A stretch of DNA of 38,126 nt from contig JBEIQI010000003.1 of assembly GCA_040376605.1 (NCBI GenBank), positions 1 to 38,126 of the forward strand. Reading direction: 5' to 3'. Shown piece by piece: positions 16,385 through 34,374 of this stretch (the stretch's first letter is position 1; every line of letters begins with the position of its first letter). This stretch comes from Flavobacteriales bacterium. Lineage in GTDB: Bacteria; Bacteroidota; Bacteroidia; CAIKAF01. The notes beneath the pieces were generated by a model. That model made no database searches. It was not told the DNA's origin and saw nothing but the letters and a program-made list of their open reading frames with translations. A program made the position numbers and the translations under genes.

Positions 16385-17416
16385 ATGCAAGTTGAAATAA
16401 GAAATAAATACTATAATTGGCAACCTGTTCCATCTTCAGTTATTAAAGATAAGCAAATGTCCGAAAATATTCATATTCGCGGATATGAGGTAATCAAAGG
16501 CCTTACGAATGAACAGGTTGATCAACTCAAAGAACTTTTTGACAAAGAGCATCAGTTGGAAATTAAAGATGGAGGTATGTTTTATAGCCTCTATTCCAAA
16601 GACTATGAATATAGAAAAAGGGTTCATGATGAAATTCACGAAATACTGTCACCTTTGTTAGAACAACTATTTACCAATTATAAAAACGTAATTAATTCAT
16701 TTGTTGTAAAGGCACCAGGGCCCAAAAGTGAATTTTATGTCCATCAGGATACTACGGCAATGGATGAGTTTAAGGCTTCTCCATTAAGCTTATGGATACC
16801 CTTACATGATATAACTACTGATAATGGAGCCATGTGCTTGATTGAAAAAACCCATTGGTTCTTTTCGCCTTATCGGGGCGTATCATTTAATTTCCCATTT
16901 ATCAAAATCAACAATACCATTAAAGATTATCTTCAACCCATTCCTTTAAAAAAGGGTGAGATTCTTGTTTTTGATCCACGGCTTATTCATAATTCTCTTG
17001 CCAATCAAACCCAGCAACATCGCATTGCCATTGTATGTGGAATATTTCCTAAAGAGGCAAGGTTTAACACTTGTTTTAAAGATCCCAACATCGAAAATGC
17101 TCCCATTGAAATTTACGAGCATGAGGATGATTATTTATTGAAGTACCCCAATTTCTTTTATAATTGTCATGAACGACCTGTAAGTGGGCATAAAACCAGA
17201 GAGGTGGCAGTTAACGAAAAAGAAATGGATTCAGAAACTTTTATTGAACTCTGTAAGGTAAATCATATCGAAAAGCAAGCATTTATTCAAAAATATTCCG
17301 AAGAAAAATGTCAGATGATTGCCGAACCGGACGGTATCAATAAATTCCCTGAGACCCACTCCGATAATGCACCTGCCGCCAAAAAGAGTTTCCTTGCGAA
17401 GCTATTCAGCAGGTAG
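16385..17416 (+). CDS. PhyH-family Fe(II)/2-oxoglutarate dioxygenase
   Basis: HQD...WIPLHD...NGAM...IHNS..N...RIA; C-terminal tail KKSFLAKLFSR. Confidence 0.88.
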   Translation: MQVEIRNKYYNWQPVPSSVIKDKQMSENIHIRGYEVIKGLTNEQVDQLKELFDKEHQLEIKDGGMFYSLYSKDYEYRKRVHDEIHEILSPLLEQLFTNYKNVINSFVVKAPGPKSEFYVHQDTTAMDEFKASPLSLWIPLHDITTDNGAMCLIEKTHWFFSPYRGVSFNFPFIKINNTIKDYLQPIPLKKGEILVFDPRLIHNSLANQTQQHRIAIVCGIFPKEARFNTCFKDPNIENAPIEIYEHEDDYLLKYPNFFYNCHERPVSGHKTREVAVNEKEMDSETFIELCKVNHIEKQAFIQKYSEEKCQMIAEPDGINKFPETHSDNAPAAKKSFLAKLFSR

Positions 17417-18514
17417 CTTTAAGGTTTCCAGGATCAGTTGATTGAGGTAGCCGGCAAACTTTTTATGACCCTTATTGTTAAAATGATTGGCAATAGTTTT
17501 GCCATCATAATCCTTTTTATCCATCATAGTTGGATAAGTCCATGGAATCTCATTAAAACAATAATCATATGTAGATACAAGGTCCGTTTTTTTTCGGATG
17601 TCAACCGGAGATGGAATACCAACGATGAGCAATTGAATGGCGTTTTGTGTACAATAGTTTTCAATAAACTTTAAATGTTTATAGGTAAATGGTGGTTTTG
17701 GGGGAGGCTCATATAAGTTTTTTCTATTTCTAAAAGTCTTCATTTTATATTCAATGCCCAGGTATAATTTTGAAAACAAAATGGAGTTTCCCATAAATTT
17801 TAAGAAGCCATTTCGTTCTTTCCCGCGTAATGTGTACCAGCTCTGATAAAAGGCAATGGCCGAATTAAAATCCTTGAGCACATAGTTGGGTGGGGCGATC
17901 CTATAGGGTGGTTCTGAATTTAGCCAAGGGCCATGAATGGGTATATAACAAAGGGGTATAAAAGGCTTTGGGGTTCTATCGTAGGTTAATATGTCATTGC
18001 CAAAATAGAAGTGAATTACGATGAGATCAGGCTTTATTTCGGGTGCAAAATGTTCAACAATTAATTTGTATTGCACAGGATCTGCACCGGCTATGCCGTA
18101 GTTTAAAAATGCATATTGTTTTTTATTGCTTAAATAGCCTGCAAATGAATTTGCCATGCTATCACTGCAACAACCATCGAGATATGAATCACCTATGGCC
18201 ATTACGATTTTTTTTCCAGTGGTTCTTCGAATATCATTAATTGTTGCTGAGTCATAGTCAAAAGTTCCAATAAATCCTTGTGAATTAATCTTTGAATCAG
18301 GTTTATAATGACCATCATCTACATAGTGTGATATACCAAATTGGTCACCAAATAAAATAGAATCGTTTACAATTTTTTTAGGCATATATGCCCAGTTAAT
18401 AAGAATTTTGGGCTTATAACCAGCTATTCTAAGGCCTAATTCTGCCAATAAAAACAAGCCGATAAAAACAGCCAACCGAATGAGCCAAATTTTTATCCTG
18501 CTTTCCTTTTTCAT
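17402..18514 (-). CDS. Membrane-anchored SGNH/GDSL hydrolase-like protein
   Basis: N-terminal TM ending ELGLR, INSQGF, GDSY, NYGIAG, GND, HFNNKGH. Confidence 0.75.
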   Translation of the reverse strand: MKKESRIKIWLIRLAVFIGLFLLAELGLRIAGYKPKILINWAYMPKKIVNDSILFGDQFGISHYVDDGHYKPDSKINSQGFIGTFDYDSATINDIRRTTGKKIVMAIGDSYLDGCCSDSMANSFAGYLSNKKQYAFLNYGIAGADPVQYKLIVEHFAPEIKPDLIVIHFYFGNDILTYDRTPKPFIPLCYIPIHGPWLNSEPPYRIAPPNYVLKDFNSAIAFYQSWYTLRGKERNGFLKFMGNSILFSKLYLGIEYKMKTFRNRKNLYEPPPKPPFTYKHLKFIENYCTQNAIQLLIVGIPSPVDIRKKTDLVSTYDYCFNEIPWTYPTMMDKKDYDGKTIANHFNNKGHKKFAGYLNQLILETLKLPAE

Positions 18515-18670
18515 TACTTTGATTCCTAATTAATTACTAAGATAAGGATTTATTGCTTTTATTCGCGGAGTTATTCTACATCACTTTAAGAGTAATTGAC
18601 TTATCAAATTACTAGGTTCGGCTCAATTAAAGATTATGCCCTTCTAACAATTCATTTAAGAAGTTACAAA

Positions 18671-20293
18671 CTACAACTTCATATATTCTGTATACCAAAC
18701 CTCAAAATCCAACCATCTTTTACTAATAGGATCATTCTCGTTAGATAATATTTTACTCAAATTTCTTTTCTTATAAAACTTACGATCCCAAACCATTTTA
18801 TTATTCAAACAACGTTGATATGCTTTGGCGTGTACATTTGGTATTTGTAATTTAGGTTCAACCCCTGTATTTAAAACAGGCAAAATAGAGTCAGCTCTTT
18901 TTGTAAGCGGCGAATTAGAGCCGATTTCCAAAAATTCCTGAGGTGCATTTTTCATTATTTCGTTGTAAAACCTGTAATCCCATAAAAACTCAATAGGAAT
19001 CGACAACACTTGTTGAATTATGCGACTATCCCAAAATGGCGAATTCCCATGACTGACCAACTGGAAGGGTTGAAGCCAATGACCTCTTGTACCTCCGTAT
19101 ATGGTTGTAAAAAAGGGCTGTGTAAATTGACGCATACAAAACAAAAGTTCAGGTTCCAGGTTTTGCAAATAACTTTGCCAAGGGTCAATATTTACGGATT
19201 TTCTAAATCTACTTGAGAACAAAGACTTGTATCTGTCTTTAATTTCCTTTTCAACAAGATTGGGATGAATAGGGGCCGCTTTTAAGCCAAAGCCTCCAAA
19301 AAATTCTCCTCCATGCCACCCGCCATACACTTGATGAAACCTTAATATTCTCCAATTCGAAAAATAAGCAGTCCCAAATTCATTTTCATAGTATGAAATT
19401 TTTTCACTAACATGAGTAAGATTGAACTTCTTTGCAAGCAATTTAGCTCCCACCACATCTTGATCATCCTCTTCGGATAAATGAGATAAGTTACTTGTAT
19501 AAAAGCGAACTCCGGCTCTTTGTTCTTGAGTTAAGCTGGCAAGTATCAAACGGGAATCAGCTCCAGCTGATAAAAGAGTCATTTGAATTTTTTGGGAATT
19601 GAATATTTGTTGATTTACATTTTTAAATAAAATCCACGTTTCGCGTGCTAATTCCTCAATACTCAGATTACTTTTTTCTAGTACCGGTTTCCAATAAGAA
19701 ATATATAAGGTCTTTTGTGAATCTATTTGCACAGTGCAAGCAGGAGCAAGGTTTTGAATATTTTTTAAGAACGTTTTACCAGCTAAAGTGGTTCCCAGGG
19801 TAAAGTATTCGGCAACCCCAACCGCATCTATTAACTTCCCTTTTGGCATATGACTAAGTGGCTCATATTCATTGGAAAAAATGAAGTAGTCTTCATTCTC
19901 ATAAATAAATAAAGGAGACATGCCAAATTTATCATGTGCTAAACGTAAAACATGCTGATGTGAATCATAGTGTATCAAAGAAAATGCTCCATCACTTTGA
20001 GACAAAAAGGATTCAAAATTGGAAAGGTGTTTTTCAGAAATTTGAATAAGTTGATCTATTACCAATGATTCCTGAACGTCAGCATGCTGAATCCAGCCAG
20101 CAAGAAATGATGCGCTGTTCGGCCCTTCCATTAAGGAGGTCCTGAATTTTTCTACTACATATAATTGAAATCCCGGGTACTGAATTAGATGAATCTGTCG
20201 CGTACCATTCTGATGGAAATCATTTATAACCTCTTGCACAGCATGGTCTTCAACATTTCCTTTCTTACTGAATATGCCCAAATAAAATGCCAT
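18671..20293 (-). CDS. Asparagine synthetase B-like ATP-dependent amide ligase (no N-terminal Cys)
   Basis: DGAFS, HDKFGMSPLF, SAGADSR (PP-loop), GWHGGE, SPFWD, FEVWY. Start placed at ATG 20293 (MAFYLGIF). Confidence 0.8.
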   Translation of the reverse strand: MAFYLGIFSKKGNVEDHAVQEVINDFHQNGTRQIHLIQYPGFQLYVVEKFRTSLMEGPNSASFLAGWIQHADVQESLVIDQLIQISEKHLSNFESFLSQSDGAFSLIHYDSHQHVLRLAHDKFGMSPLFIYENEDYFIFSNEYEPLSHMPKGKLIDAVGVAEYFTLGTTLAGKTFLKNIQNLAPACTVQIDSQKTLYISYWKPVLEKSNLSIEELARETWILFKNVNQQIFNSQKIQMTLLSAGADSRLILASLTQEQRAGVRFYTSNLSHLSEEDDQDVVGAKLLAKKFNLTHVSEKISYYENEFGTAYFSNWRILRFHQVYGGWHGGEFFGGFGLKAAPIHPNLVEKEIKDRYKSLFSSRFRKSVNIDPWQSYLQNLEPELLFCMRQFTQPFFTTIYGGTRGHWLQPFQLVSHGNSPFWDSRIIQQVLSIPIEFLWDYRFYNEIMKNAPQEFLEIGSNSPLTKRADSILPVLNTGVEPKLQIPNVHAKAYQRCLNNKMVWDRKFYKKRNLSKILSNENDPISKRWLDFEVWYTEYMKL

Positions 20294-20345
20294 AATACAA
20301 TAGTAGCCAAATGAAGTATAAATTCCCAAATAACAGAACATTAAG

Positions 20346-20377
20346 TTTGATTCGTATCCAATAATTAAATAAATTTG
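20346..20377 (+). promoter_or_regulatory. Complete Bacteroidota sigma70 promoter (-33 TTTG, -7 TAAATTTG)
   Basis: TTTG at 20346-20349, 20-nt spacer, TAAATTTG at 20370-20377; the ATG at 20382 follows after 4 nt. Confidence 0.65.
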
Positions 20378-20381
20378 AAGT

Positions 20382-21248
20382 ATGCTATTTAAAGACCCGC
20401 AAAAACAGCAAGAATTAGAAAAGAATGGATATGTTGTTGTTCCTCTATTAAGCCGATCAGCCATTGAATCGCTTAATAAGTTTTACAACGAAATACATCC
20501 TGAAGGCTCTCCTCCTGATATTATAGATGGAATCCATATGAGCACTTGGTGCAAGAATTCAGCCTATAAAAATCAAGTTTCTGAATTTTTGAGTAACCTT
20601 TTTGCCGAACCAACTGAACAATACTTTACTAATTATAGAAGACTCAACAACGTTTTTATTGTTAAAAAAAGTGGTAAGGATACCACATTCAAGGTCCACC
20701 AGGATTGGAATGTAGTAGATGAGACCAAATTTGAAAGTGTAAATGTTTGGGTACCCCTGCATGATGTGGATGAAAACTCCGGAGCATTATGGGTATTAAA
20801 AGGAAGTCATAAAATCAATCGTAAAATTAGAGGTGCCGGTTATTTATTTCCCGATTATAGTCCGTTTTTTAATGAGTTAGAAAAAAAATCCATTTCGGTA
20901 AAGTTGAAGGCCGGAGAAGCCATCGTTTTTTACCACTCCATTATTCATGGATCACCCCCTAATTTGGCTGATACGGATAGAAAAGCGGCATGTTTTAGTG
21001 TAATACCACAAAATGCTCCTCTTTGCATTTATTTTCAACCTTCGGCTAATGATGATTTAGAACAATATGAGCCAACAGATGATTTTATTTATCAATATGA
21101 TTATTTGAGAACCGAATCCACCCAAAGGCCACCAGCCGAGACACCAGTAAAAACCCTACCGTCCTATATTAATGAGAAAGTGAGTTTAAAGGAGCTGACA
21201 GAATTTTTGAATAAGTCGAAAGGGATTTTTTCTTTTTTACATAAATAG
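20382..21248 (+). CDS. PhyH-family Fe(II)/2-oxoglutarate dioxygenase
   Basis: HQDWNVVDE, WVPLHD, IHGSPPN...RKA; tail KGIFSFLHK. Confidence 0.88.
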   Translation: MLFKDPQKQQELEKNGYVVVPLLSRSAIESLNKFYNEIHPEGSPPDIIDGIHMSTWCKNSAYKNQVSEFLSNLFAEPTEQYFTNYRRLNNVFIVKKSGKDTTFKVHQDWNVVDETKFESVNVWVPLHDVDENSGALWVLKGSHKINRKIRGAGYLFPDYSPFFNELEKKSISVKLKAGEAIVFYHSIIHGSPPNLADTDRKAACFSVIPQNAPLCIYFQPSANDDLEQYEPTDDFIYQYDYLRTESTQRPPAETPVKTLPSYINEKVSLKELTEFLNKSKGIFSFLHK

Positions 21249-21300
21249 ATATCATACATTTTTGATATCATTTATAAGCCGGCACAATAATTACAGATTA

Positions 21301-21955
21301 CTAGGACCAATAATAAAACCTCTTTTTATCTAAAGAGATTCCCATAAATCCACCAAATGAAATTCTTGGATTTTTTCGCATAACCGTTTCAATTTTATGC
21401 CAAATATTACCTCCTTGAAAAATTATAATGTCACCCTTTCTCGGCCTAATTTTATCCTTAATAATATTGGGGTTGTCATTAACATACATTTTAGATCCGT
21501 CCGGCAGTATGATTTCATTACCTTCTGAAGGATTTACCATTTAAGTCCACTCCAAATTCCTGTTCAAATGTATCATGAAAGATTAAGTTGCTTTCAAAAT
21601 AAGCTTTAATCAGGGGGCAGCCCTCTGTTCACCAGAGTTTTCTTTAATTCCCCTCGAAAATTCTGCTAAAACAGCCGAATAAGTGAGACCTACAGATGTA
21701 TGGGCTGGATTGTAATTAATTACCTTGCTAATATTGGACATGATTGCATCGACCTCTGCTTCTGTTAAAACTGTTTCACCAAATAACCATCAGATACATT
21801 GGTTTACCAATTATATAATTCGTCCTTTTTTCCCACCAATTCCTTTAGCAATAGCTTTAAAATTATATGGTTCAGTTGTAAATTCTTGTCGATATTCATT
21901 ATCCTTAGGTATTTGGTTAAATCCAAATATTCCTTTTAATATTTTACTTAACTTT
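21301..21955 (-). pseudogene. Decayed 2OG-Fe(II) oxygenase gene
   Basis: Minus-strand fragments in shifting frames: KLSKILKGIFGF..., DGYLVKQF / LTEAEVDAIMSNI, AYFESNLIFHDTFEQEFGVDL, then an intact C-terminus GDIIIFQGGNIWHKIETV...PRISFGGF; internal stops and frameshifts; upstream boundary approximate. Confidence 0.65.
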
Positions 21956-21979
21956 TATAATATTAAATAAATCTACCGA

Positions 21980-23191
21980 TTAATTTTTTAATCTTTTGAT
22001 TTCCCATTCCAATCTCGGTGAGACAACAGTACTCATTTGATTAAAATAACCTTCATTACCAGTTTCTTGGGAAGAAGGGAGAATTTTAAAAGAAGTCATA
22101 TTATCCATTTGATCAACCAGTTCAAAAGACTTACTTATAATAAGTGAAAGATGATAAATACCTCTGGGAAGAAAATTGGCAGGGATCACACAACCCACCA
22201 AATACCTACCGGGCTGCGTGATTTTATCAAAGTCATAATTACTTCGTAGTGCAAATGAATCAAGAAAAATCCTAATACCATCCAAATTTGAAAGATAGAT
22301 TGCCAGCTCTAACGTACCGACTTCGGAAATTTTTTCAAAATCGAAAACTATTTCTATGGCTTCATCAACAAATAAAGGCCAAGAAGACTTTTCTCCAAGT
22401 GAAGAAATAGTTACTCCTTTCAAAAAAATAAAATCCAGAATGTTGCGATCAATTATTACCCTATCCTGCATTAAGTGTTCCCCTGCCAAATTTGATCCCC
22501 TTTGAGAAAATCCTTCGATATATTGTTCTATAACTACTATTGGTGGTCCTTCCATTCGTAGCAATCCATTATCAATCCAAATTGCCTTTGTGCAAAGCTC
22601 CAAAACCTGCGACATATTATGACTTACTAATACAATAGTTAATCCACTATTGGCCATAAATCGAAGCCTTGACATACATTTTTCCTTAAATTCATTATCC
22701 CCAACAGCAACTACCTCGTCTAATAAAAGGATTTGTGTATTGATGTGAACAGCAATCGAAAATGCCAATCTCAAATACATTCCGTTTGAGTAATTTCTTA
22801 CCGGCTCATGAATAAAACTTTCTATACCGCTAAAATGAATAATATCATTTATTTTTTCGTTCACCTCAATTTTAGACATTCCAAAAAGCGAGGCATTTAA
22901 AAAAATATTATCATACCCCGAAAGATCGGGATGAAATCCAGTTCCAATATCTAAAATCGAAACAACCACCCCATCAAACTTAACAGAACCTGAGCTTGGA
23001 GCGATTACATCACTTAAAATTTTTAACAAGGTACTTTTGCCGGCTCCATTTTTACCAACAATACCCAATATCTCACCACGCCTTAACTCAAAAGAAACAT
23101 CCTTTAAAGCCCAAAATGGTTCTTTTGAACCATTTAAAGAATATTTCTTTGAAATATTCTTTACTACTAATACCGGGTTTTGGTTGTCCAT
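21980..23191 (-). CDS. wzt: Polysaccharide ABC exporter ATP-binding subunit with a C-terminal carbohydrate-binding-type domain
   Basis: FWALKDVSF, Walker A GKNGAGKST, YSNGM, LLLDEVVAVGD, VSH; ~170 aa C-terminal extension. Confidence 0.92.
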   Translation of the reverse strand: MDNQNPVLVVKNISKKYSLNGSKEPFWALKDVSFELRRGEILGIVGKNGAGKSTLLKILSDVIAPSSGSVKFDGVVVSILDIGTGFHPDLSGYDNIFLNASLFGMSKIEVNEKINDIIHFSGIESFIHEPVRNYSNGMYLRLAFSIAVHINTQILLLDEVVAVGDNEFKEKCMSRLRFMANSGLTIVLVSHNMSQVLELCTKAIWIDNGLLRMEGPPIVVIEQYIEGFSQRGSNLAGEHLMQDRVIIDRNILDFIFLKGVTISSLGEKSSWPLFVDEAIEIVFDFEKISEVGTLELAIYLSNLDGIRIFLDSFALRSNYDFDKITQPGRYLVGCVIPANFLPRGIYHLSLIISKSFELVDQMDNMTSFKILPSSQETGNEGYFNQMSTVVSPRLEWEIKRLKN

Positions 23192-23198
23192 TCTCTAC

Positions 23199-24158
23199 TT
23201 ATAAATCACTTTCTTTCCATTTCTCCACCTGCATTAAATATAAATTCTGTAAGAAATATCTACTGTTCCCCGAAAAGATATCCATTGCTGGTTTAATAAG
23301 TTTCAATTCAAAAAAGTCAACCGGAAAAACATAATCTCTTAGATTCTCAATTTTATTAATGCCGGTTAACTCCTGAAATTCGTTCGATATTGTTAGGTTT
23401 TCAAATTCCTCCAAAGGAATATCAATCGTTTTTAAGGATGATAAAATATACCCTTTTTTCCGAACATGGTCGAGAATTGTATTCAAATCAGCAACATTGT
23501 ACCTGTACGCATTATTGATATTGTTGATCTCCACTTCAATGCCCTTTTCCATTCCCTTGTGCAATGCCTTCTTCCTAAACAAGTCCTTAATATAAATTAC
23601 GCCTCCTGGTTTTAAAACGTTCCAGGTGGAATCCAATACCTGAATATGGTTGGTTGCGTGCCCAAAAGATTCTAAAAAATAGATGGCATCAAAATGATTT
23701 TCAGGAAAATACTTTTCCAGGGTATGAAAATCTCCCTCTTGTACATTAATTAACATTGAGGCATTACTATCTTTGATATTATCCTTCGCCTTCTGCACCT
23801 GCACAGATGAAATGGTAAGTGCTTCTACTTGAACACCCACCTTTTCGGCAAAGTGAATTGCAGGCCCACAAACACCACAACCCGCATCCAACACAACCAT
23901 ACCCTTATCCAAACCAATAGCCTGTATTTGGTAATCGAGCAGAACAGAAACATCCGTTGTTCGAAATGCCTGAATTACCTTACCATAAACCTTTAAGAAA
24001 TTATCGGTTTGTTCATTATAAAATCTACCCACATCGCTTTGGTAGGATTTTACTGTATTGGATTTCGAAGATTCTTTTTTTAGCTTATAATAATACGCGA
24101 TTATGCTAAACAATAGCAATAGATTAACCGTAATTGACAATATTAAAAAAGCCCTCAT
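23199..24158 (-). CDS. Membrane-anchored class I SAM-dependent methyltransferase
   Basis: N-terminal TM helix; VLDAGCG, EGDFH, FDAIYFLESFGH, LKPGG (sterol/tocopherol/CFA methyltransferase-like pattern). Confidence 0.85.
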   Translation of the reverse strand: MRAFLILSITVNLLLLFSIIAYYYKLKKESSKSNTVKSYQSDVGRFYNEQTDNFLKVYGKVIQAFRTTDVSVLLDYQIQAIGLDKGMVVLDAGCGVCGPAIHFAEKVGVQVEALTISSVQVQKAKDNIKDSNASMLINVQEGDFHTLEKYFPENHFDAIYFLESFGHATNHIQVLDSTWNVLKPGGVIYIKDLFRKKALHKGMEKGIEVEINNINNAYRYNVADLNTILDHVRKKGYILSSLKTIDIPLEEFENLTISNEFQELTGINKIENLRDYVFPVDFFELKLIKPAMDIFSGNSRYFLQNLYLMQVEKWKESDL

Positions 24159-24218
24159 TTTTTATTTTCTATCAAATTCAATGGAGATATTTTTAAAAAA
24201 CATACTAAATAATCATTT

Positions 24219-24776
24219 TTATTTCTCTGTTAAGTTATAATTAATTTTGCAACCTATAGGTTCCGTTTCTTTAATATCTGGCCTCCTATTATTCAAAACT
24301 GCTATTATCGCATTTTCCAAATACTTTTCTGTTACAACATTCCTGTGCTTGCCTAAAGAATAATAATAATTATCAAACGCACCACTATAGACAACATTTT
24401 TAGCAGAATCTGTCAAAATGAATTGCGGTGTAGCTTTGACACTAAAATTCCTTGCCATCATCAAATCGGTATCATATATTACAGGAAGGTCAAAGTCATA
24501 ATCTTCCAGAGTTTTTTTTAAATACAATGTATCCGGAAAAGGATCAGAATAAACTGCTGTAACCGTTAATCCTTTAACTGCATATTCTTTACTCAATTCG
24601 CTGACCTTTTGAAAACTTGCTTTACAAGCGGGGCAATCAGGGATGAAAAAAAAATAACAACTCATCGCCTGAGCTTTCAAAGTATCTATGCTCCCACCTT
24701 TTGATACTTCCTTTGTCCTGTTACAAGAACTGAAAGAAATATTCAAAATTATTAATACCAAAATCCAGATTCTCAT
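24219..24776 (-). CDS. Redoxin (AhpC/TSA, thioredoxin-fold) lipoprotein
   Basis: Lipobox-like ISFSSC, CPAC, ATPQ, YSGAFDN, PIGC. Confidence 0.82.
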   Translation of the reverse strand: MRIWILVLIILNISFSSCNRTKEVSKGGSIDTLKAQAMSCYFFFIPDCPACKASFQKVSELSKEYAVKGLTVTAVYSDPFPDTLYLKKTLEDYDFDLPVIYDTDLMMARNFSVKATPQFILTDSAKNVVYSGAFDNYYYSLGKHRNVVTEKYLENAIIAVLNNRRPDIKETEPIGCKINYNLTEK

Positions 24777-24782
24777 GATGTA

Positions 24783-26201
24783 TTATTTCCGCAAAATTTC
24801 TGTAGGCTCAACCTGTTCATCACCCTTCCTATAAGCCGTAAACATTAAACTTAGCACCATCATTTCCTGATTGGAATAAGTGTCGTATTTTACATCTTGA
24901 ACCGGATTATTGGGTTGTACTGGATTATTTGCCGTATTATCGTAAACAGCGTTCATATAAATTGTAGACCCCCCAGGAATTACCGTTAATTTCCTTAACA
25001 GATAACTCCCCTGCCATAAATAATCCCAATCATTTATCTTTAGAATATTAATTTTTTTCAATTCCTTAGTGATCGCAAAAATTTCTATTTTTTTGGCCAA
25101 AAAATGCAAATGAGGAACACATCCAATCAATGAAATTGTAGAATCCGTATAAAAAGAAATTGTTTCCACCTTGATGGTATTTGCTGGAAAAAAAATCTCC
25201 AGATTGTTTAAAATTTCCCATTTAATTTCACGTTCTGGCCTTTTACTAAAAAAAACCTGCAAGCTTGTACGTTCTCTTTGCCCTTTGTTGCCTTCATCTC
25301 CGTAATGTGTTTGCAACAGCAGCTTAGATCCCTTTGGATAACGAAAGGCAAAGCCTTTGGTTAGTTGAGTTGGTACCATTCCTCTTGACCATGGTTCAAT
25401 AGGTATTAACTTATTAACTATTTCATCTTTCATACAATTCCAACACCCAGGTAATGAATTCAAAATCCCAAGTGTATCCATATATACCATTATATGATGA
25501 ATTGTACTTGGGTTCGATGAGTGAAATCTTATGGAATTAACAAATGTGTCAATCGGCAAATCAAGATCAACTACAAAACATTGGTAAGAGTCATCGTTTG
25601 AGTTTATAGTGTGCTCTTCAGTATAATAAGTTCGGCTGCCTCTTAAATTTTTTGTGGGCAAGAATTGTTGAATCCTGCTATCCTTCGAAAATTTGGGTGG
25701 CAAGGCACCCTGATCAATCCATTTCACAATAACCCATCTTAATGAATCATTAATCCTTGGAGCATTCATTAGTTCCGAATATGTGTCATCCGCCATCCAA
25801 GGTGGCATAACTCTCTCCATAAGAACATCTTTAATAACCGCAGATCTCTTAAGTATAGCCTCATAAGAATTTAAAACAAAAGGACCATTCCCATTTTCAC
25901 TATGACATGGTGTGCAATTATCAACGAATAGTGGGAAAACGTCAGAAAAATCCACAGGGCCATTTTCCCAGTTAGTATCAATTAATTTTCCTCGAGGATC
26001 AGCTAATCCATGATAATATTCCAATAATAATGCATTCTTGGCACTATCATTGTTAAATGTTGAAAAATCCCGAGTATTCTGTATATCCACATCTTTCTTA
26101 GATCCCAAATTACATGAGTACATTGCATAAAACACAATAAGCAAAGCGTAAAATCTAAAATAGATCCTAGTTATTTGAATCCTAGTACTTTCTTGAACCA
26201 T
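24783..26201 (-). CDS. Heme-c + copper type II monooxygenase (PHM/DBH-like) protein, probable lipoprotein
   Basis: CTPCH heme-binding motif, MPPW, HH (TIHHIM), QTHY, PHLH, WDYLWQ, YDNT..NP, EMM; start uncertain. Confidence 0.78.
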   Translation of the reverse strand: MVQESTRIQITRIYFRFYALLIVFYAMYSCNLGSKKDVDIQNTRDFSTFNNDSAKNALLLEYYHGLADPRGKLIDTNWENGPVDFSDVFPLFVDNCTPCHSENGNGPFVLNSYEAILKRSAVIKDVLMERVMPPWMADDTYSELMNAPRINDSLRWVIVKWIDQGALPPKFSKDSRIQQFLPTKNLRGSRTYYTEEHTINSNDDSYQCFVVDLDLPIDTFVNSIRFHSSNPSTIHHIMVYMDTLGILNSLPGCWNCMKDEIVNKLIPIEPWSRGMVPTQLTKGFAFRYPKGSKLLLQTHYGDEGNKGQRERTSLQVFFSKRPEREIKWEILNNLEIFFPANTIKVETISFYTDSTISLIGCVPHLHFLAKKIEIFAITKELKKINILKINDWDYLWQGSYLLRKLTVIPGGSTIYMNAVYDNTANNPVQPNNPVQDVKYDTYSNQEMMVLSLMFTAYRKGDEQVEPTEILRK

Positions 26202-27046
26202 TGTATTTTATTAGGTTGGCCATTTGTCAAAAATATAGAATTATACTGTTGGATGGTCAGATACTCTAATCTATCTTCCACCTTCGCAATCATTTCAAGT
26301 CCCTCCGGACCATTATTTGGATCCTTATCTAAAAAGAAATCTTCAGTTACCTTATAGGAGTTGATCTCCCCATCTTGACCATAATAAAGTTGCATGTTTT
26401 GGTTTTGGGGTATTATTCCACAAACAATTCCCAATCTCATTTTGTTGGTGTTGTTATTGGGAGATGCATGCACAAGGGCATGATCATACAAAAGGGCTTC
26501 GCCGGCCTTCATTGGCAAAGCTTCCAGGCTAGTCCAAACATGGGGTTCAATGTTTTTAAATAATGATGGAATTCCAGGACCACGATGGGTAAATATTTTA
26601 TTGTGACTTCCTGGTAAAACATAAACGGCACCATTCTCTACGGTTACATCAATCAATGGTATCCATAGATTGTAAGAACGGGTTATTCTTTCATCTACAA
26701 TATTCCAATCTTGATGTGGAGGCAGAAGTCCTTTGCCATTAGAGGGTTTTACAACAAAGGCACCACCTAGTAAATCATATCCACAAAAAAATTGTTCCAT
26801 TCTTTCGGCAACAGTTTTTTTAATGAAATTACTGGTCTCCCTCCTAAATGAATGATCAGGGGAATGAGTAGAAGAATAAAAATGATTGGGTTCCTCTTTT
26901 TGAACGTTCGTATAATAGGAGATGAGTTTTTCAAGATCATCCTTATTCAAAAATGGAAAAATAGTATAACCTCTCACGGCCAATTCTTCCGCAGCATTAA
27001 CATCTTTCGATATTTTACTTGCTTCAAATACTATCCTCTGATCCAT
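26171..27046 (-). CDS. PhyH-family Fe(II)/2-oxoglutarate dioxygenase
   Basis: HQDWNIVDE, WIPLID, VHASPNN...RLG; tail WFKKVLGFK. Confidence 0.88.
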   Translation of the reverse strand: MDQRIVFEASKISKDVNAAEELAVRGYTIFPFLNKDDLEKLISYYTNVQKEEPNHFYSSTHSPDHSFRRETSNFIKKTVAERMEQFFCGYDLLGGAFVVKPSNGKGLLPPHQDWNIVDERITRSYNLWIPLIDVTVENGAVYVLPGSHNKIFTHRGPGIPSLFKNIEPHVWTSLEALPMKAGEALLYDHALVHASPNNNTNKMRLGIVCGIIPQNQNMQLYYGQDGEINSYKVTEDFFLDKDPNNGPEGLEMIAKVEDRLEYLTIQQYNSIFLTNGQPNKIQWFKKVLGFK

Positions 27047-27936
27047 CCCATTATTTTTTTAGTGAGGCCTTGTTTAGGTATCAATTCCACGGATTTTGAT
27101 TCAACGCCGCTTTTAATTAACTCTTCGTTAGAAATACGAGGTAATTGAAATGGAACCACTCCCAAACTTCTTCCGATGGTAGGTCGTTGAAAAATAGATT
27201 GATGAAAATTCTCAAATTTGATTAAAAAATCGTCTTCTTGAGCAAACAACTCTATTTTATCGGGAGCTTCCTTGTCCCAATAATGGAATACCATAGGTGC
27301 CTCTTTTGATTTAATACCGGTGGTAATGGCGATTCGCATTTCATCGGTTCTATTTGGTTTAGAATAATGAATAATGGCCTGATTCAAAACAATGGCTTCA
27401 CCTGCTTTTGCAACAATCGGCATCAGCAATTTTTTTAATGACTCCTGATGTCCTTCATAATAAAAGGGTAAGGTGGGAGCTCTTAGAGATTGATGCCATG
27501 CATGACTTCCTTTTATCACTTCAATGGTTCCATTCATCTCATCAGTGTCTTGTAAAGGAGTCCAGATATTTACAGCCACATACTTTTTTTCATCTACGAT
27601 GGTCCAATCCTGATGCATGGGCATCTCGCTTCTAGGCCCGTTTCCTTTAGAAAGAAATGCAGATCCAAACCAAGTATAATGATTAAATATTTTTTCCAAA
27701 TTAGGTACAATGACTTGTCCAATTGCATCACTCATCCTCTTTTTAGCTGGAAAGTCATTTTCATAACTGGAAGAATAGAAATCCTGTGAAGGATTCGGAT
27801 AAAATTGTGCAAATAATGACCTAAGAGAATTAATATCCTCCTCCGAAATCAATGAAATCTTCACAAAACCATCTTCATCAAAACGTTTTTGTAAGAGTGG
27901 ATCATTAAAAATTGGAAGTATTTTTTCTACTATCAT
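27031..27936 (-). CDS. PhyH-family Fe(II)/2-oxoglutarate dioxygenase
   Basis: HQDWTIVDE, WTPLQD, IHYSKPN...RIA; tail GLTKKIMGWIRG. Confidence 0.88.
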   Translation of the reverse strand: MIVEKILPIFNDPLLQKRFDEDGFVKISLISEEDINSLRSLFAQFYPNPSQDFYSSSYENDFPAKKRMSDAIGQVIVPNLEKIFNHYTWFGSAFLSKGNGPRSEMPMHQDWTIVDEKKYVAVNIWTPLQDTDEMNGTIEVIKGSHAWHQSLRAPTLPFYYEGHQESLKKLLMPIVAKAGEAIVLNQAIIHYSKPNRTDEMRIAITTGIKSKEAPMVFHYWDKEAPDKIELFAQEDDFLIKFENFHQSIFQRPTIGRSLGVVPFQLPRISNEELIKSGVESKSVELIPKQGLTKKIMGWIRG

Positions 27937-28853
27937 GATCCTTTCTTATTTAAAAACAACCTTTCCCAAAAACCTTTTTTTACGCCTTTTTCTTCAACAG
28001 GCTGTTTTGGAACATAATTATATTCTTTGATCAAAAGTTCTGTATCAATCTTCGGGAAATCATAAGGTACATAACCTAAGGATTTTCCAATTGAAGGCCG
28101 ACTAAAAATATCATTCCCGAAATTCTGAAAATTCACCATAAAATCCTCGTCCTGATCGAACATTTCTATTTCTCCCCGTCGTTGTTTATCCCAATAGCAA
28201 ATTTTTATGGTTGCTTCCTTATGAGTTACAAAGGTATTTACAACTGGCCTCACTTCTTGGGATAGATTTGGAGGTGAATAATGAATTATGCTTTGATCGA
28301 AGACAATCGCCTGCCCAGCCTTTAAATAGCATGGCTGCATCAATGATTTTACCTCATTTACCATACCATCATAAATATCAGGTAAAGAAGAGCCACGATA
28401 TGTTCTAAAAAGTCGATGACTCCTTGGTAAAACTTCTATCGCTCCATTTTTTGAATCCAAATCAACTAAAGGAATCCAAATATTCGTGCCAGTATATTTC
28501 GTTTCATCCACCAATGTCATATCCTGATGAAGAATCAATTCGCTTTTTTCACCTGGTGCCTTGGCAATATAACTCCCACAATAGACCTTATAATCGGTAA
28601 AGAAATGTTCCAATCCGCGTCTCATCGTTAATTGGATCTCATCATCTACCTTTTTCCTGTAATCCGTATCTATTGCAAAAGTACTGGTATAAAATCCTGT
28701 AACCCCTTGTGGATGTAAATCATCAAAAAGTTGTTTAAGGTATTTTACTTCATCCATGTTTAAAAAGTCCAGTATAACATACCCTTCTGTATTGAACATA
28801 TTTTGAAGTTCAGGGTTGCTAAATATTCGTGCTTTGTTGTCGAAATTAATCAT
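27933..28853 (-). CDS. PhyH-family Fe(II)/2-oxoglutarate dioxygenase
   Basis: HQDMTLVDE, WIPLVD, IHYSPPN...RPV; tail KKGFWERLFLNKKGS. Confidence 0.88.
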   Translation of the reverse strand: MINFDNKARIFSNPELQNMFNTEGYVILDFLNMDEVKYLKQLFDDLHPQGVTGFYTSTFAIDTDYRKKVDDEIQLTMRRGLEHFFTDYKVYCGSYIAKAPGEKSELILHQDMTLVDETKYTGTNIWIPLVDLDSKNGAIEVLPRSHRLFRTYRGSSLPDIYDGMVNEVKSLMQPCYLKAGQAIVFDQSIIHYSPPNLSQEVRPVVNTFVTHKEATIKICYWDKQRRGEIEMFDQDEDFMVNFQNFGNDIFSRPSIGKSLGYVPYDFPKIDTELLIKEYNYVPKQPVEEKGVKKGFWERLFLNKKGS

Positions 28854-28857
28854 GTTC

Positions 28858-30747
28858 TTACTTCTTCGTTAATCGATGTTTAATTTCAGCAATGATATTT
28901 GTTGGGGTATAGATTTGAAAAAACCCTCTTTTAGAAGTCTCGTTGGTAATTAAAGGCTCTTCATTCAAACTGACATTTTGCTTGGGTTTCCCGTCCATAT
29001 TATAATGATACATTCCCGCCAATTCTTCCATCAATTCATTATTAAACTTTACGCCCGGGGTAGTACATATTAGTTGAGTAATCTCTTCTTTTGAAAACTC
29101 CTGTGCAATTTTTTTAAACGATTCGATTGCCTTCAGTTCATTCGGTTTAGTATTTGCATTATAATATTCCGACATTCTAGAATTATTATACAAGGGGAAA
29201 AATGCCGGTTCTACTTCGTACACTTCAATCCTTTCTTCATTACCAGGTAATTGATAATAATGTCTTAAACGAGCTTCCTTTTGCGTAATTCCAATTCCTG
29301 CAGCTATTCTTGATTTTCCAGAAATATTTGGAGGAGATGCATGAATGGTTTTATTATTAAAAATCAAAGCCTCACCAGCCTTCATGTCTATAACTTCTAC
29401 ATAAGGAAACAAATTAAATACATGATCTGATAATAATGACTTAGCTTGTGGAGAAGGAGAGGCCCTTGGGAAATTAAACAATTTATGACTCCCCCTAATA
29501 ATACCCAAAGCCCCATTGTTTTTATTTACGTCCATTAATGGAATCCAAACGGTGCCTGAGCAAAACTCCGTTTCGTCAACAAAACTCCAATCCTGATGTG
29601 GAGGTACGATATTTTCAAGCCCAGCCTCCTTTATTACGTAACTAGCAGTAAATGCCTGATAGTTCAACAAAAATGGACTTAACTTGGGTATAATGGTATC
29701 AAATAAAATTTTAAAAACACCATTTCTATAATCTGCACTTTTATTTTCCAGACTAATATGAAAACCATAATCTTTCACATGGTCATGGTTTAAAGATAAA
29801 TAATACTTCTTTAAAGTATTCACTTCATCATCATTCAATAAGGATAGCATAACAAATCCATCCCGATCAAATTTCTCCTGAATCGTTGAATCGCTGAACA
29901 AAGGTTGAGGTGTGAATTCGAGTGATCTTTGATGATTAATTTCATCCATTCGTTGAATAAATTCATCGGATTTTATTCGGTCACTTTTTTGCTGAATCAC
30001 CTCTAGAAGTTCTGCTTCCAAAGGTGCTTCTCCCTCATTAGAAAACGTAATAAAGAAGTCATCTTTAACCCTAAATTTTTGAAAAGTGTCCTTTTCCTTT
30101 TGATGATAAAAAATGAGATCAGCATCCTTGTGAACTAATCCAAAAGCCACCGCAATACGGGGCTTATCCGATTCATTTTTATTGGATCCATGAATGATCG
30201 ATTGATCAAATATAAAGGCCTCTCCCGCCTTCATATACAAGGTATGGGCAAGTTTATCTAGGGTGTCCTGAATATCCTTTAGATGATCAAAATTGCCTGG
30301 TCCTCTTTTGTATCTGGAAAATTCATGGCTTGAAGGAACCACCTTAATTGCTCCATTCGTTTCATTCGTTTCATTCAAACTAACCCAAACCGTTATACTT
30401 CGAAATTGATCCTCATCCACTACCGTCCAATCCTGATGAAAAGGCATGTGGCCTCCCTGGCCTTGATTCTTAACTAAAAACTGAGCCCCAAGCGTCTTAT
30501 AGTCAGAAAAATGTTGTTGTATAATGGGATCCAGAATTGAAATCAGACTATCATTAAGCCGTTTTTTTTTCTCTATATCCTTAACAAAAGTGCTTGAATA
30601 AAAATTTTCAGACCCCTCTGGAAAACTTTGATGATAAAGGTTATTCAACTTTACCACCGTTAATTCATCTAAAAGCTTTTTACGTAAAAAGCCATATTGC
30701 GTAAACCTTTCTGCATCCGAATGATATTTAAAAACATTATTCATCAT
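28858..30747 (-). CDS. Tandem two-domain PhyH-family dioxygenase
   Basis: Two complete motif sets: HQDWTVVDE...IHGSNKN...RIA and HQDWSFVDE...IHASPPN...RIA; 629 aa. Confidence 0.88.
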   Translation of the reverse strand: MMNNVFKYHSDAERFTQYGFLRKKLLDELTVVKLNNLYHQSFPEGSENFYSSTFVKDIEKKKRLNDSLISILDPIIQQHFSDYKTLGAQFLVKNQGQGGHMPFHQDWTVVDEDQFRSITVWVSLNETNETNGAIKVVPSSHEFSRYKRGPGNFDHLKDIQDTLDKLAHTLYMKAGEAFIFDQSIIHGSNKNESDKPRIAVAFGLVHKDADLIFYHQKEKDTFQKFRVKDDFFITFSNEGEAPLEAELLEVIQQKSDRIKSDEFIQRMDEINHQRSLEFTPQPLFSDSTIQEKFDRDGFVMLSLLNDDEVNTLKKYYLSLNHDHVKDYGFHISLENKSADYRNGVFKILFDTIIPKLSPFLLNYQAFTASYVIKEAGLENIVPPHQDWSFVDETEFCSGTVWIPLMDVNKNNGALGIIRGSHKLFNFPRASPSPQAKSLLSDHVFNLFPYVEVIDMKAGEALIFNNKTIHASPPNISGKSRIAAGIGITQKEARLRHYYQLPGNEERIEVYEVEPAFFPLYNNSRMSEYYNANTKPNELKAIESFKKIAQEFSKEEITQLICTTPGVKFNNELMEELAGMYHYNMDGKPKQNVSLNEEPLITNETSKRGFFQIYTPTNIIAEIKHRLTKK

Positions 30748-31664
30748 AATCCTTTCAATAAACCCATGGCCTTGTTTAATAATCCTGGAGTTTGATCAAA
30801 TCTTTTTCCCTTTAACCCTTTTAAAAATTCTTCATAGGTAAATGGATGATCTTTAAATTTGAGCACCTTCAATTCTCGTTTCCCATGAGGTTGTAACCAC
30901 GGATGAAACTCCATATAAAAACTCTGATCCGTTTCGAAAACATGCACTTTGTTTTTGTCTACTGTTCTGTCCAAATGATAATGAACCGGATGAGTGCATT
31001 TCGGGATTAGAATTAATTGAATGGTTAACCGTAATCCTGAGGTTTGGTTAATATTGCTATAATGAACAATGCTGTCATCTAAGATAACTCCCGTCCCGGC
31101 CTTCACATTCATCGGTGTCAGGTGCTTATTAATAATCTCTTGTTTAATCCCTTCTAATTCCCATGGGATAAGTGGCCCCCGCAGTCTGCCAAATTTCTTA
31201 TGACTTCCATCCACCATTTGTAAGGTGCCATTCTCTTCATTACTATCTACCAATGGGACCCAAATTGAAACTGATGTAAATTTATCCTCTTCTACGAATG
31301 CCCAATTTTGATGCAATGGAACTTCCCCTCCTCCCTCTTTCTTGCGGATATAATTGGCAATGATGGGTGTATAGTCGTTTAAATATTCATCAACTCGTTT
31401 TTGAAAGGCCTTGGTGATTATGTTAAATACCTTTTTCTTATACTCTGGATTTCGATCAATAAATGTAAAATCGTAGGTGATTTCACTTTCTGTTTTAAAA
31501 TCGGTATCGTTACTCGTTTTGGATCCACCGCTTTCCGGTAAAGTTTCAAAAAACATCTGTTTCAAATATTCGACCTCCGATGCATCCAAGAAGGGAACCT
31601 GAACGTAACCTTTCCTGTCAAACTCTTCCTGTAAGGATTTATAACGCAAAACAACGTTGGGCAT
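30744..31664 (-). CDS. PhyH-family dioxygenase with variant HQN iron motif
   Basis: HQNWAFVEE, WVPLVD, VHYSNIN...RLT; tail GLLNKAMGLLKGL. Confidence 0.85.
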   Translation of the reverse strand: MPNVVLRYKSLQEEFDRKGYVQVPFLDASEVEYLKQMFFETLPESGGSKTSNDTDFKTESEITYDFTFIDRNPEYKKKVFNIITKAFQKRVDEYLNDYTPIIANYIRKKEGGGEVPLHQNWAFVEEDKFTSVSIWVPLVDSNEENGTLQMVDGSHKKFGRLRGPLIPWELEGIKQEIINKHLTPMNVKAGTGVILDDSIVHYSNINQTSGLRLTIQLILIPKCTHPVHYHLDRTVDKNKVHVFETDQSFYMEFHPWLQPHGKRELKVLKFKDHPFTYEEFLKGLKGKRFDQTPGLLNKAMGLLKGL

Positions 31665-31677
31665 AAAATTTAAGGTG

Positions 31678-32496
31678 TTAAAGTCTTTCCACTATTTGTT
31701 TTTCAAATTTAACGAAAAAAACCAAGGAAATGAATAGCAACAATAAGGTGGCCGCAAAAACTAAAATTGCCCCTATTGAAATCCCGGCTCCTTCAAATAA
31801 CGCTCCTCGAAGTCCTTCTACAGCCGTGGCAAGAGGATTTATGTATTTAATATATATCTGAAACCGAGTCGGAATAATTGAAACGGGATAGAATACTGGA
31901 GTTAGCCAAATTCCAAAGTTCATGATAAACGGTAAAATGTGCAGGACGTCGCGAAAACGAACAATCATTATACTCAATAAAATGGCCACACTTAAAGAAA
32001 AAAGCACCGCCTCTAAAATAAAAAATAAGGCTATTAAAATATTTAATCCCAATGGGGTTTGATTAATTAAAATCATCACTATTAAAACCAAAAAGAGCAT
32101 CACGCTTTCAATTAATACTGGAAATGACTTTGCAACAATAATAATCAATCGAGGAAAAGATACTTTGGAGATTAATTCCGTAGATTCTAACAACGCAACG
32201 CTACCCTTAGAAACAATGCCGGTGAAAATATACCATATAACCAATCCGCTAAAAACAAACTGAATGTATGGAATATTTTTCGTGTCAATTTTAATCAAAT
32301 AATTAAAGAATATAGAATAAATAACCACGGCAACTAGCGGCTGAATGATCATCCAGCCAACACCTAAAACAGCCCTAGAATATTTTACCTTCAGCTCTCT
32401 GTTAGCGAGTGACCTTAATAAAAAGCCGTATGCCTTCAACCTTTTTATATAGGCGACCAAAGTATAAGGCCTATTGTTAATTTCCTTTTGGCTCAT
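31678..32496 (-). CDS. wzm: Polysaccharide ABC exporter permease (ABC-2 type)
   Basis: RELKVKYSRAVLGVGWMIIQPL, KVSFPR, RFRD, TPVFYP, NPL. Confidence 0.92.
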   Translation of the reverse strand: MSQKEINNRPYTLVAYIKRLKAYGFLLRSLANRELKVKYSRAVLGVGWMIIQPLVAVVIYSIFFNYLIKIDTKNIPYIQFVFSGLVIWYIFTGIVSKGSVALLESTELISKVSFPRLIIIVAKSFPVLIESVMLFLVLIVMILINQTPLGLNILIALFFILEAVLFSLSVAILLSIMIVRFRDVLHILPFIMNFGIWLTPVFYPVSIIPTRFQIYIKYINPLATAVEGLRGALFEGAGISIGAILVFAATLLLLFISLVFFVKFEKQIVERL

Positions 32497-33504: not shown

Positions 33505-34374
33505 TTGAAAAGAAAAATAGCACATATCATCAATCCCTTTATTGCTTCGGAAGGTTCAGACCTAGCGTATGCCCAACCAATTACCTTCCAAACCATGCTC
33601 CTTGCCAAAAACAAGGCCGAAACCATCATGGATATTGAGCTATTGGCAGCAGCATTTCCGGAAGATGAAAAAATCATTCCATCATATTTTAAAAAAACCA
33701 GTTTCTTGGAAAAGAGTGTTTTGGGTTTTAATGATTTTCAGAAAAAAATAAAATTACCGTGCATTGCCGAAATTTTACAAAAAGCATTTGAGGAGAGTGA
33801 AGCCGACTATATTATTTATTCGAATGCTGATATTGGTTTGTATCCTGACTTTTATTTAACCGTAAATACTTTAATTGATGAAGATTTTGATGCCGTTATT
33901 ATCAATAGAAAACGGCTTAAACCTAAATATACCAAGGTGGAGGAGATTGATCGTATTTTATTGCAGGAAGGTAAATCACATCCCGGTTTTGATTGTTTTG
34001 TATTCCATAGGAGTATTTATCCCAAATTAGTTCTTGAGAATATTTGCATTGGAGTTCCATTTATAGAAATTACTTTATCCCAAAATCTATTTCACCTGTC
34101 TAATAAATTTAAATTAATCGAATCTGCACGAAATACGTTTCATATAGGTATGGAGATCTTTAAAAATAGAGCTCCCAAAGAATATGTAAAATTTAACCGA
34201 ATTGAATTTAGAAGGGCAATATGCAAACTCGATCCTTTCCTAAAAAGCAAAAACCTGCCATATAGCCATTTAATATTACCATTAAGAATAATCAAGTGGG
34301 GCCTACATCCCTGTATCCCAATAAAACTAGCCTTAGGTTTGGAAATCAAACGTTGGTTCGGTAGGAAAAATTAA
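33505..34374 (+). CDS. Hypothetical protein, possible GT-A-like nucleotide-diphospho-sugar transferase
   Basis: AHIINP, DYIIYSNADI, HPGFDCFVF; TTG start. Confidence 0.5.
   Translation: MKRKIAHIINPFIASEGSDLAYAQPITFQTMLLAKNKAETIMDIELLAAAFPEDEKIIPSYFKKTSFLEKSVLGFNDFQKKIKLPCIAEILQKAFEESEADYIIYSNADIGLYPDFYLTVNTLIDEDFDAVIINRKRLKPKYTKVEEIDRILLQEGKSHPGFDCFVFHRSIYPKLVLENICIGVPFIEITLSQNLFHLSNKFKLIESARNTFHIGMEIFKNRAPKEYVKFNRIEFRRAICKLDPFLKSKNLPYSHLILPLRIIKWGLHPCIPIKLALGLEIKRWFGRKN

Follow-up and report, generated by a model that had tools for sequence, protein, structure and literature searches.

A stretch of 38,126 nucleotides from a Flavobacteriales bacterium (GenBank assembly GCA_040376605.1, contig JBEIQI010000003.1), referred to here at its full length as the window, encodes seven open reading frames (ORFs) of the PhyH family of Fe(II)/2-oxoglutarate (2OG) oxygenases, each of which ends in a short C-terminal tail. 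Judged at the level of sequence, the tails are a solid observation through their conservation across orthologues. Comparative evidence further suggests that they probably serve as peripheral membrane anchors, which would hold these enzymes on the cytoplasmic side of the membrane beside a Wzm/Wzt-type exporter. The membrane binding, the face at which it occurs and the membrane-bound nature of the substrate are what we infer.

The seven ORFs contain eight PhyH domains (PF05721), with scores of 58.8-139.2 bits compared to a cut-off of 22 for all seven, and all eight PF05721 matches of the genome (3.17 Mb, 91% complete) lie inside the window. Two classes of tail, A and B, are distinguished below. 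The ORFs and their tails are as follows.

16385..17416, plus strand: PhyH, 343 aa, 68.7 bits; class A tail KKSFLAKLFSR at 17381-17413, preceded by the linker PETHSDNAPAA
20382..21248, plus strand: PhyH, 288 aa, 73.6 bits; class A tail KGIFSFLHK at 21219-21245
26171..27046, minus strand: PhyH, 291 aa, 75 bits; class A tail KIQWFKKVLGFK at 26174-26209
27031..27936, minus strand: PhyH, 301 aa, 67.3 bits; class A tail GLTKKIMGWIRG at 27034-27069
27933..28853, minus strand: PhyH, 306 aa, 58.8 bits; class A tail KKGFWERLFLNKKGS at 27936-27980, with a variable linker upstream of it at residues ~280-291
28858..30747, minus strand: PhyH-PhyH fusion, 629 aa, 139.2 bits in two stretches; class B tail KRGFFQIYTPTNIIAEIKHRLTKK at 28861-28932
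30744..31664, minus strand: PhyH, 306 aa, 70 bits; class A tail GLLNKAMGLLKGL at 30747-30785

The seven C-termini had been pointed out in a first-pass annotation of the window, and they translate exactly as quoted there, its coordinates being the ORF ends including the stop codon. The linkers rich in proline and charge that it placed ahead of the tails are likewise present in the translations.

The H-Q motif, the distal His and the Arg of the metal and 2OG site are invariant in the eight aligned PhyH domains, and the Asp is present in seven of them. In the ORF at 30744-31664, H-Q-N replaces the H-x-D metal motif. HQN or HEN is found in 55 of its 57 orthologues, which indicates that the Asn is maintained in this orthogroup and does not reflect damage to the gene; this protein may have an unusual metal site or may be a non-catalytic partner. 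None of the seven N-termini resembles a signal peptide, and Pfam matches on the seven ORFs are confined to PhyH and other 2OG-oxygenase families, Asp_Arg_Hydrox giving only a sub-threshold match (18.6 bits against a cut-off of 22.6). The 2OG-Fe(II) oxygenase families of the "sporadic carbohydrate cluster" type, TIGR04324 and TIGR04436, scored 20.6-48.7 bits on the three of seven paralogues that were scanned, with cut-offs of 150 and 200.

Conservation of the tails

A search with the ORF at 27933-28853 returned 530 relatives among 772 candidates. Of the 120 orthologues listed, 108 passed the strict class A criterion, by which a 9-mer within the last 16 residues has a hydrophobic moment of at least 0.5, a mean hydrophobicity of at least 0.35 and a net charge of at least +2. 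One of two simple motif patterns is matched by 110 of the same 120, and the remaining ten end in visibly similar sequence. In an alignment of 64 orthologues, the linker columns have an entropy of 3.2-3.4 bits and many insertions and deletions, whereas those of the tail give K(78% basic)-K-s-Φ(94%)-Φ(100%)-x-R(88% basic)-Φ(100%)-Φ(95%) with acidic residues almost absent. Six codons for Arg, six for Leu and two for Phe are used at the conserved tail residues (35/80 orthologues matching the motif pattern). Such free codon variation at conserved residues indicates that the constraint acts on the protein and not on DNA that overlaps the start of the next gene, and a nucleotide-level constraint from overlapping gene starts was therefore rejected.

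The comparison was extended to related loci by scanning one genome per species. The resulting 80 loci, nearly all of them labelled uncultured Bacteroidota (Crocinitomicaceae, Flavobacteriales, Chitinophagales, Saprospiraceae), contain 1166 ORFs, of which 451 are PhyH (1-11 per locus). The tails of these 451 PhyH ORFs were classified as follows.

Strict class A: 255
Class B: 104
Relaxed class A only: 47
None: 40
Masked: 5

A strict class A or a class B tail is thus carried by 359 of the 451 PhyH ORFs, compared to 73 of the 715 neighboring non-PhyH ORFs of the same loci, where all 73 are strict class A and none is class B. The relaxed class A definition was not used as evidence, since 164 of the 715 non-PhyH ORFs pass it.

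The distribution of tails within single orthogroups is given below, each orthogroup being named by its member in the window.

16385-17416 (n=44): 24 strict, 7 relaxed, 13 none
20382-21248 (n=27): 13 strict, 4 relaxed, 10 none
26171-27046 (n=79): 58 strict A, 13 B, 6 relaxed, 1 none, 1 masked
27031-27936 (n=82): 48 strict A, 9 B, 15 relaxed, 9 none, 1 masked
30744-31664 (n=57): 47 strict, 6 relaxed, 1 B, 2 none, 1 masked

Members without any tail class are rare in the five orthogroups enclosed by wzm and wzt (15/378) compared to the two outlying ones (23/71). Some orthologues of 16385-17416 stop at a CNMIxEP motif, before the linker, and have no tail. The occurrence of tail-less and class-swapped members within orthogroups suggests that the tails are modular and have been gained, lost and swapped between classes. 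Furthermore, sequences drift within orthogroups, as illustrated by the tails GFVSKLKAVFS, SWWKKVRSKLVGA and GFFSFLKR, and their chemistry is kept.

As a control, the best PF05721 matches from 30 other genomes of the phylum were collected, giving 35 canonical PhyH ORFs. They score only 14-67 bits on a profile of the eight PhyH domains of the window, which places them outside the subfamily. Just 2 of the 35 satisfy the strict criterion, and no member of the set shows anything like the motif; the first-pass annotation had proposed that PhyH homologs outside glycan loci would lack the tail, and the result goes in the predicted direction.

For the wider family, 1.84 billion representatives were searched with a profile, which retrieved 10,837 members at E <= 1e-3 and 2172 clusters (50% identity) at E <= 1e-30. 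Many of the family members are double or triple PhyH fusions. In the 150 representatives listed, a strict class A tail occurs 40 times and class B 15 times, two sequences combining both marks; a number of the class A tails are rich in Arg, which is used there instead of Lys.

Class B motif and hydrophobic anchors

The tail of the double-domain ORF had been taken for a looser, diverged version of the MinD type. Instead, it belongs to a separate and far more sequence-specific motif, here called class B, with the consensus D-x-R-S-F-[FW]-x-K-Y-T-P-x-N-I-h-R-E-I-K-x-R-[LIVM]-x-G. The protein ends 19-27 residues after the start of the motif in 103 of 105 cases. The search pattern itself fixed some positions, and conservation was counted at the positions left free, of which Arg-2 (73/105), Pro (83/105) and the last Arg (102/105) are still conserved. 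Of the 80 orthologues of the double-domain ORF, 69 carry class B, which some single-domain paralogues share.

A true hydrophobic anchor takes up the C-terminus in a few relatives. No C-terminal hydrophobic stretch of 19 residues or more is present in the window or in any of the 451 PhyH ORFs of the related loci. Among the 150 representatives listed from the wider family, four end in such a stretch (Kyte-Doolittle 2.4-2.7), and in three of these four it lies a few residues after a class B motif.

Natural fusions between PhyH proteins and the methyltransferase of the module provide a second kind of substitution. In three of them, two from related loci (L009:4470-6299 and L013:11793-13628) and one from a family representative (protein P0261), a class B motif stands between the two parts and the N-terminal hydrophobic helix of the methyltransferase is missing, so that class B occupies the position that this helix has in the free enzyme. 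A transmembrane helix between two cytoplasmic domains would be topologically awkward, but an element lying in the plane of the membrane would not. Fusions of PhyH to PhyH retain no internal tail motif, and the double-domain ORF of the window has none between its two domains.

Membrane anchoring and its alternatives

Structures were predicted with AlphaFold2 for two of the proteins. For the ORF at 27933-28853 (64 orthologues), the mean predicted local distance difference test (pLDDT) score is 90.8 and the core is above 90, followed by coil at residues 279-294 and a helix at 295-303 with pLDDT of 56-63. For the double-domain ORF (42 sequences), the mean is 88.0, residues 591-605 fall below 50, and helices at 609-612 and 615-627 reach about 68-73. 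The core has the double-stranded beta-helix fold, its top Foldseek matches all being PhyH-type oxygenases, and neither of the two models contains a long coiled coil. Read from the confidence values alone, the tail would not be packed on the core. A homodimer prediction with two copies of the ORF at 27933-28853 scored 0.00 in both runs and is uninformative on oligomers or on a tail at an interface.

Collectively, these features suggest an enzyme of three parts. In this view, the catalytic core is a soluble double-stranded beta-helix, extended at its C-terminus in a manner specific to the family. A disordered linker follows, with a variable length of some 8-25 residues and a sequence that is likewise variable, and the protein closes with a short element that would fold as an amphipathic helix lying on the inner membrane's cytoplasmic leaflet. 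In the six class A ORFs, the inserting face would be made up of four large hydrophobic residues spaced i, i+1, i+4 and i+5, and the Lys and Arg residues before and between them may bind anionic head groups. In the double-domain ORF, class B would form a helix-break-helix, FFxKY-TP-xNIxREIKxRL, at the membrane interface. Binding through one anchor of this size should be weak and reversible. The likely outcome is a two-dimensional concentration, beside the Wzm/Wzt exporter, of as many as eight oxygenase domains and the transmembrane-anchored methyltransferase, which would act on a glycan or glycolipid that is bound to the membrane, probably through a polyprenyl link, and has yet to be exported.

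The idea that these enzymes are tethered to the membrane came from the first-pass annotation and is partly supported. The contrast between a conserved tail and a hypervariable linker, the low count among control PhyH ORFs and the substitution by hydrophobic anchors favor it, but the hydrophobic-moment analysis that had been proposed as its check is unexceptional for single tails. With the best 9-mer on the Fauchère-Pliska scale at 100° and 2145 crude ORF C-termini of the genome as background, the seven tails have moments of 0.54-0.74, which correspond to the 60th-94th percentile (genome median 0.49), the highest being that of the ORF at 27031-27936 (0.74, 94th percentile). When the last 14 residues of each tail were shuffled, p ranged from 0.06 to 0.62 for the seven, and across the whole family the shuffle result is shifted but not overwhelming, with a median p of 0.12 and 32% of values below 0.05 compared to 7% for other ORFs. 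The strict criterion is passed by 6 of the 7 PhyH ORFs and by 203 of the 2138 others in this genome (9.5%), a contrast in which the paralogues are not independent; moreover, its thresholds were chosen after the tails had been seen, and about 10% of all ORFs pass. Three other sets of thresholds gave 6/7 compared to 283/2138, 5/7 compared to 123/2138 and 7/7 compared to 393/2138. A HeliQuest-style discriminant (0.944*moment + 0.33*charge) was dropped, as it is swamped by Lys-rich ends; it places the seven tails only in the top 8-27%. Taken singly, the seven tails are only weakly beyond chance by their physical chemistry.

These physicochemical results weigh against anchoring, and so do three further points. 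Neither tail class is present in 95 of the 150 representatives listed from the wider family, which makes the tail a feature of only part of it. In class B, the Tyr, Asn and Glu are invariant and the Arg is kept in 102 of 105 sequences, and the motif is retained beside a true hydrophobic anchor; such conservation suggests a role beyond plain lipid binding, and the sequences appear to fit specific recognition better than a generic lipid anchor. Finally, the C-terminal amphipathic helix of MinD is reported to bind membranes weakly and to need two copies to do so (PMC6803595).

The main competitor to a lipid anchor is a docking peptide, which would bind a protein of the module, such as the C-terminal extension of Wzt, Wzm, the methyltransferase or another tail-bearing enzyme, with lipid contact being secondary. 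We regard this explanation as unlikely overall, and it is most plausible for class B, whose sequence specificity is far above the need of a lipid anchor and which is retained where a hydrophobic anchor comes after it. Synteny of the PhyH genes with wzm, wzt and the methyltransferase gene is tight, and the C-terminal region of WbdD, the chain terminator of the Escherichia coli O9a glycan, is likewise reported to recruit a partner (PMC11231755). However, the free drift of class A with its chemistry kept is the usual mark of lipid binding rather than of a specific interface, the two classes interchange within orthogroups, and the replacement by hydrophobic anchors points to the membrane. It is less probable still that the tail is an intramolecular element, namely a lid, an autoinhibitory segment or an oligomer interface that packs on the enzyme itself. 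A precedent exists in FlhG, whose membrane-targeting sequence is stronger than that of MinD and is reported to be occluded in a groove of the monomer (PMC6803595), and the class B helix reaches a pLDDT of about 73. A linker that is hypervariable in length and sequence is nevertheless a poor fit for a fixed packing site, the confidence of the class A tail stays far below that of the core, and some orthologues are tail-less with an intact core.

There is very little to suggest that the tails lack a function of their own and merely reflect Lys-rich ends in a genome of low GC content or coding constrained by the start of an overlapping downstream gene. The GC content of about 35%, the one in ten ORFs that pass the strict criterion, the five tails that abut or overlap the start of the next gene and the failure of the window tails to stand out from their own shuffles would all be expected from such an origin. 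It does not account for the codons that are free to vary at conserved residues, for the tails of the ORFs starting at 16385 and 20382, which have no downstream gene on the same strand, or for a pattern that recurs in 80 species, takes an Arg-for-Lys version in some broader representatives and is absent from other PhyH proteins. Cargo peptides of protein compartments are also short terminal helices that follow flexible linkers. Targeting to an encapsulin or a bacterial microcompartment has nevertheless almost no probability here, as neither an encapsulin shell protein (PF04454) nor a microcompartment shell protein (PF00936) was found in the genome at its completeness of 91%.

Like the membrane-targeting sequences of MinD and FtsA, the tails would form a short, basic amphipathic helix that closes the chain behind a flexible segment and binds reversibly to the cytoplasmic leaflet. 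Their carriers are different, being Fe(II)/2OG dioxygenases and not a ParA/MinD ATPase or an actin-like protein, and no nucleotide switch is known for them. The resemblance to MinD is one of function and convergence, not of homology, the tails being likened to it by type; this genome has no match to MinD (TIGR01968) over the cut-off. Its FtsA (contig C308, 2559-3842, plus strand) carries KGSFWDKLINKGRDFF near the C-terminus, followed by an acidic end, EDDETKL. The best 9-mer of this segment has a moment of 0.73, and the segment is close to the PhyH tail KKGFWERLFLNKKGS.

Returning to membrane anchoring as the preferred explanation, a more speculative extension concerns the division of labor between the classes. 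Class B could be a dedicated juxtamembrane recognition module and not a generic lipid anchor, with the pyrophosphate or head group of a carrier lipid or a surface of Wzm/Wzt as its ligand. Together with the class A tails, it could organize an oxidative assembly line on the membrane surface. There, a methyltransferase and at least eight Fe/2OG oxygenase domains would modify a single lipid-linked product at many positions ahead of its export, amounting to an uncharacterized form of glycolipid tailoring. We put this forward as a tentative suggestion that is rather doubtful at present.

Gene cluster, related systems and implications

Five of the PhyH ORFs, with six domains, form an unbroken run on the minus strand that extends from a Wzm-type permease towards a Wzt-type ATPase. 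Two inserted genes and a methyltransferase gene lie between the last PhyH of the run and wzt. The core neighbors are as follows.

31678..32496, minus strand: Wzm-type ABC-2 permease (PF01061, 63.1 bits), directly upstream of the PhyH run
23199..24158, minus strand: S-adenosylmethionine-dependent methyltransferase with an N-terminal hydrophobic helix (Methyltransf_11/25, CMAS-like)
21980..23191, minus strand: Wzt-type ATP-binding cassette (ABC) ATPase of 403 aa (PF00005) with a C-terminal extension of ~170 residues, at the end of the run

The best NCBIfam names are Wzm/RfbD and KpsM for the permease and TagH and Wzt/RfbE for the ATPase, all of them below the cut-off. The hydrophobic helix of the methyltransferase was seen in 23 of 24 stand-alone orthologues inspected by eye, out of 52 orthologues in all, and the enzyme may represent a second membrane-anchored tailoring enzyme of the module. 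In the related loci, the recurrent order is KAS III, GT2, GNAT, a gene without assignment, GT2, Wzm, the double PhyH, four single PhyH genes, methyltransferase and Wzt, with two further PhyH genes close by. Homologues are present in at least 55 of the 80 loci for Wzm, at least 46 for Wzt and at least 52 for the methyltransferase. Many loci end at the ends of contigs, and these neighbor counts are therefore lower bounds.

Several other features of the region were noted. The inserted genes between the last PhyH gene and the methyltransferase (24219-26201, minus strand) encode a 472-aa CxxCH protein, with weak sub-threshold matches to copper monooxygenase and cytochrome c, and a redoxin-family protein; homologues of this pair occur in just 3 of the 80 related loci, so that it looks like a local insertion into the module. 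Downstream of wzt (21301-21979, minus strand) lies a remnant of a 2OG oxygenase of the WelO5 family (PF22814), in which a 79-aa ORF aligns to positions 199-277 of the 277 in the profile (E 1e-20) and the upstream frame has several stop codons. Intact homologues of 322-334 aa are found in related loci. A 289-aa protein at 33505-34374 (plus strand) has no Pfam or NCBIfam match and is conserved in 28 of the 80 loci, with a conserved basic, hydrophobic C-terminal region that reads WGLQPSIPIRLxLRLEWxRxF in orthologues and LEIKRWFGRKN here. If its first start codon is used, the asparagine-synthase-like ORF at 18671-20464 (minus strand) shares 83 bases with the beginning of the divergent PhyH ORF at 20382-21248 (plus strand). 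Its first ~57 residues are hydrophobic without a family match, and the true start is probably further in. Three of the related loci (L010, L037 and L086) are labelled Proteobacteria (Hydrocarboniphaga, Henriciella and Lysobacterales) and have modules 46-62% identical to the Bacteroidota versions, which could reflect mislabelled bins or horizontal transfer.

A close parallel to anchoring beside an exporter is WbdD, for which a C-terminal amphipathic helix is reported to keep the protein on the inner face of the membrane (PMC3447403 and PMC11231755). Like WbdD, the enzymes described here would be cytoplasmic tailoring enzymes of a Wzm/Wzt, that is ABC-transporter-dependent, glycan pathway. WbdD, however, is a kinase/methyltransferase that also has a coiled-coil ruler and a polymerase-recruiting site, whereas this cluster has dioxygenases, seven tail-bearing proteins in two tail classes and no coiled coil in the two models.

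Oxidation of membrane-bound glycolipids by 2OG enzymes before export also has precedents. LpxO is an Fe(II)/2OG hydroxylase that tailors lipid-anchored lipopolysaccharide. A second example is KdoO, an Fe/2OG hydroxylase described as acting on the lipid-anchored lipopolysaccharide core (PMC8533242). The module would share this chemistry with KdoO and LpxO, but these two belong to other 2OG families, are found as single enzymes and are not encoded between wzm and wzt.

Structurally, the core is best matched by natural-product oxygenases with the PhyH fold, namely MysH, SnoK/SnoN, EvdO2, HygX and KanJ (Foldseek E 1e-12 to 1e-10, 213-248 aligned columns, query TM-score 0.42-0.50). These alignments fall short of the 306 residues of the model, the chains of the natural-product oxygenases being 240-290 residues long. 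Identity of the core to these enzymes and to PHYHD1 is 14-21% over 213-282 aligned columns, and the sequence profile also matches MysH, EvdO2 and PHYHD1. EvdO2 and HygX have roles on sugar moieties. According to their entry titles, SnoK, SnoN and KanJ act on sugar moieties as well.

In the literature searched, with subscription journals outside its coverage, no paper was found that describes amphipathic anchors on PhyH enzymes or wzm/wzt clusters with runs of PhyH genes, and nothing on two classes of PhyH tail or on a natural series from an amphipathic tail to a transmembrane anchor. The principle of such anchoring is textbook knowledge, and the gain is one of scope rather than concept. For the catalogue of bacterial membrane-targeting sequences, the family offers a natural series that consists of an amphipathic tail, an amphipathic motif with a transmembrane helix, and a transmembrane helix alone.

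Oxygenases of the PhyH type are usually treated as soluble enzymes of small-molecule metabolism. Many members of this subfamily appear to have been refitted as peripheral membrane enzymes in a glycan export module that is shared among uncultured Bacteroidota. The tails would mark the paralogues that belong to the core machine and offer an inexpensive way into the pathway by experiment. They predict that the chemistry takes place at the cytoplasmic leaflet, before export, and would imply a substrate that is bound to the membrane.

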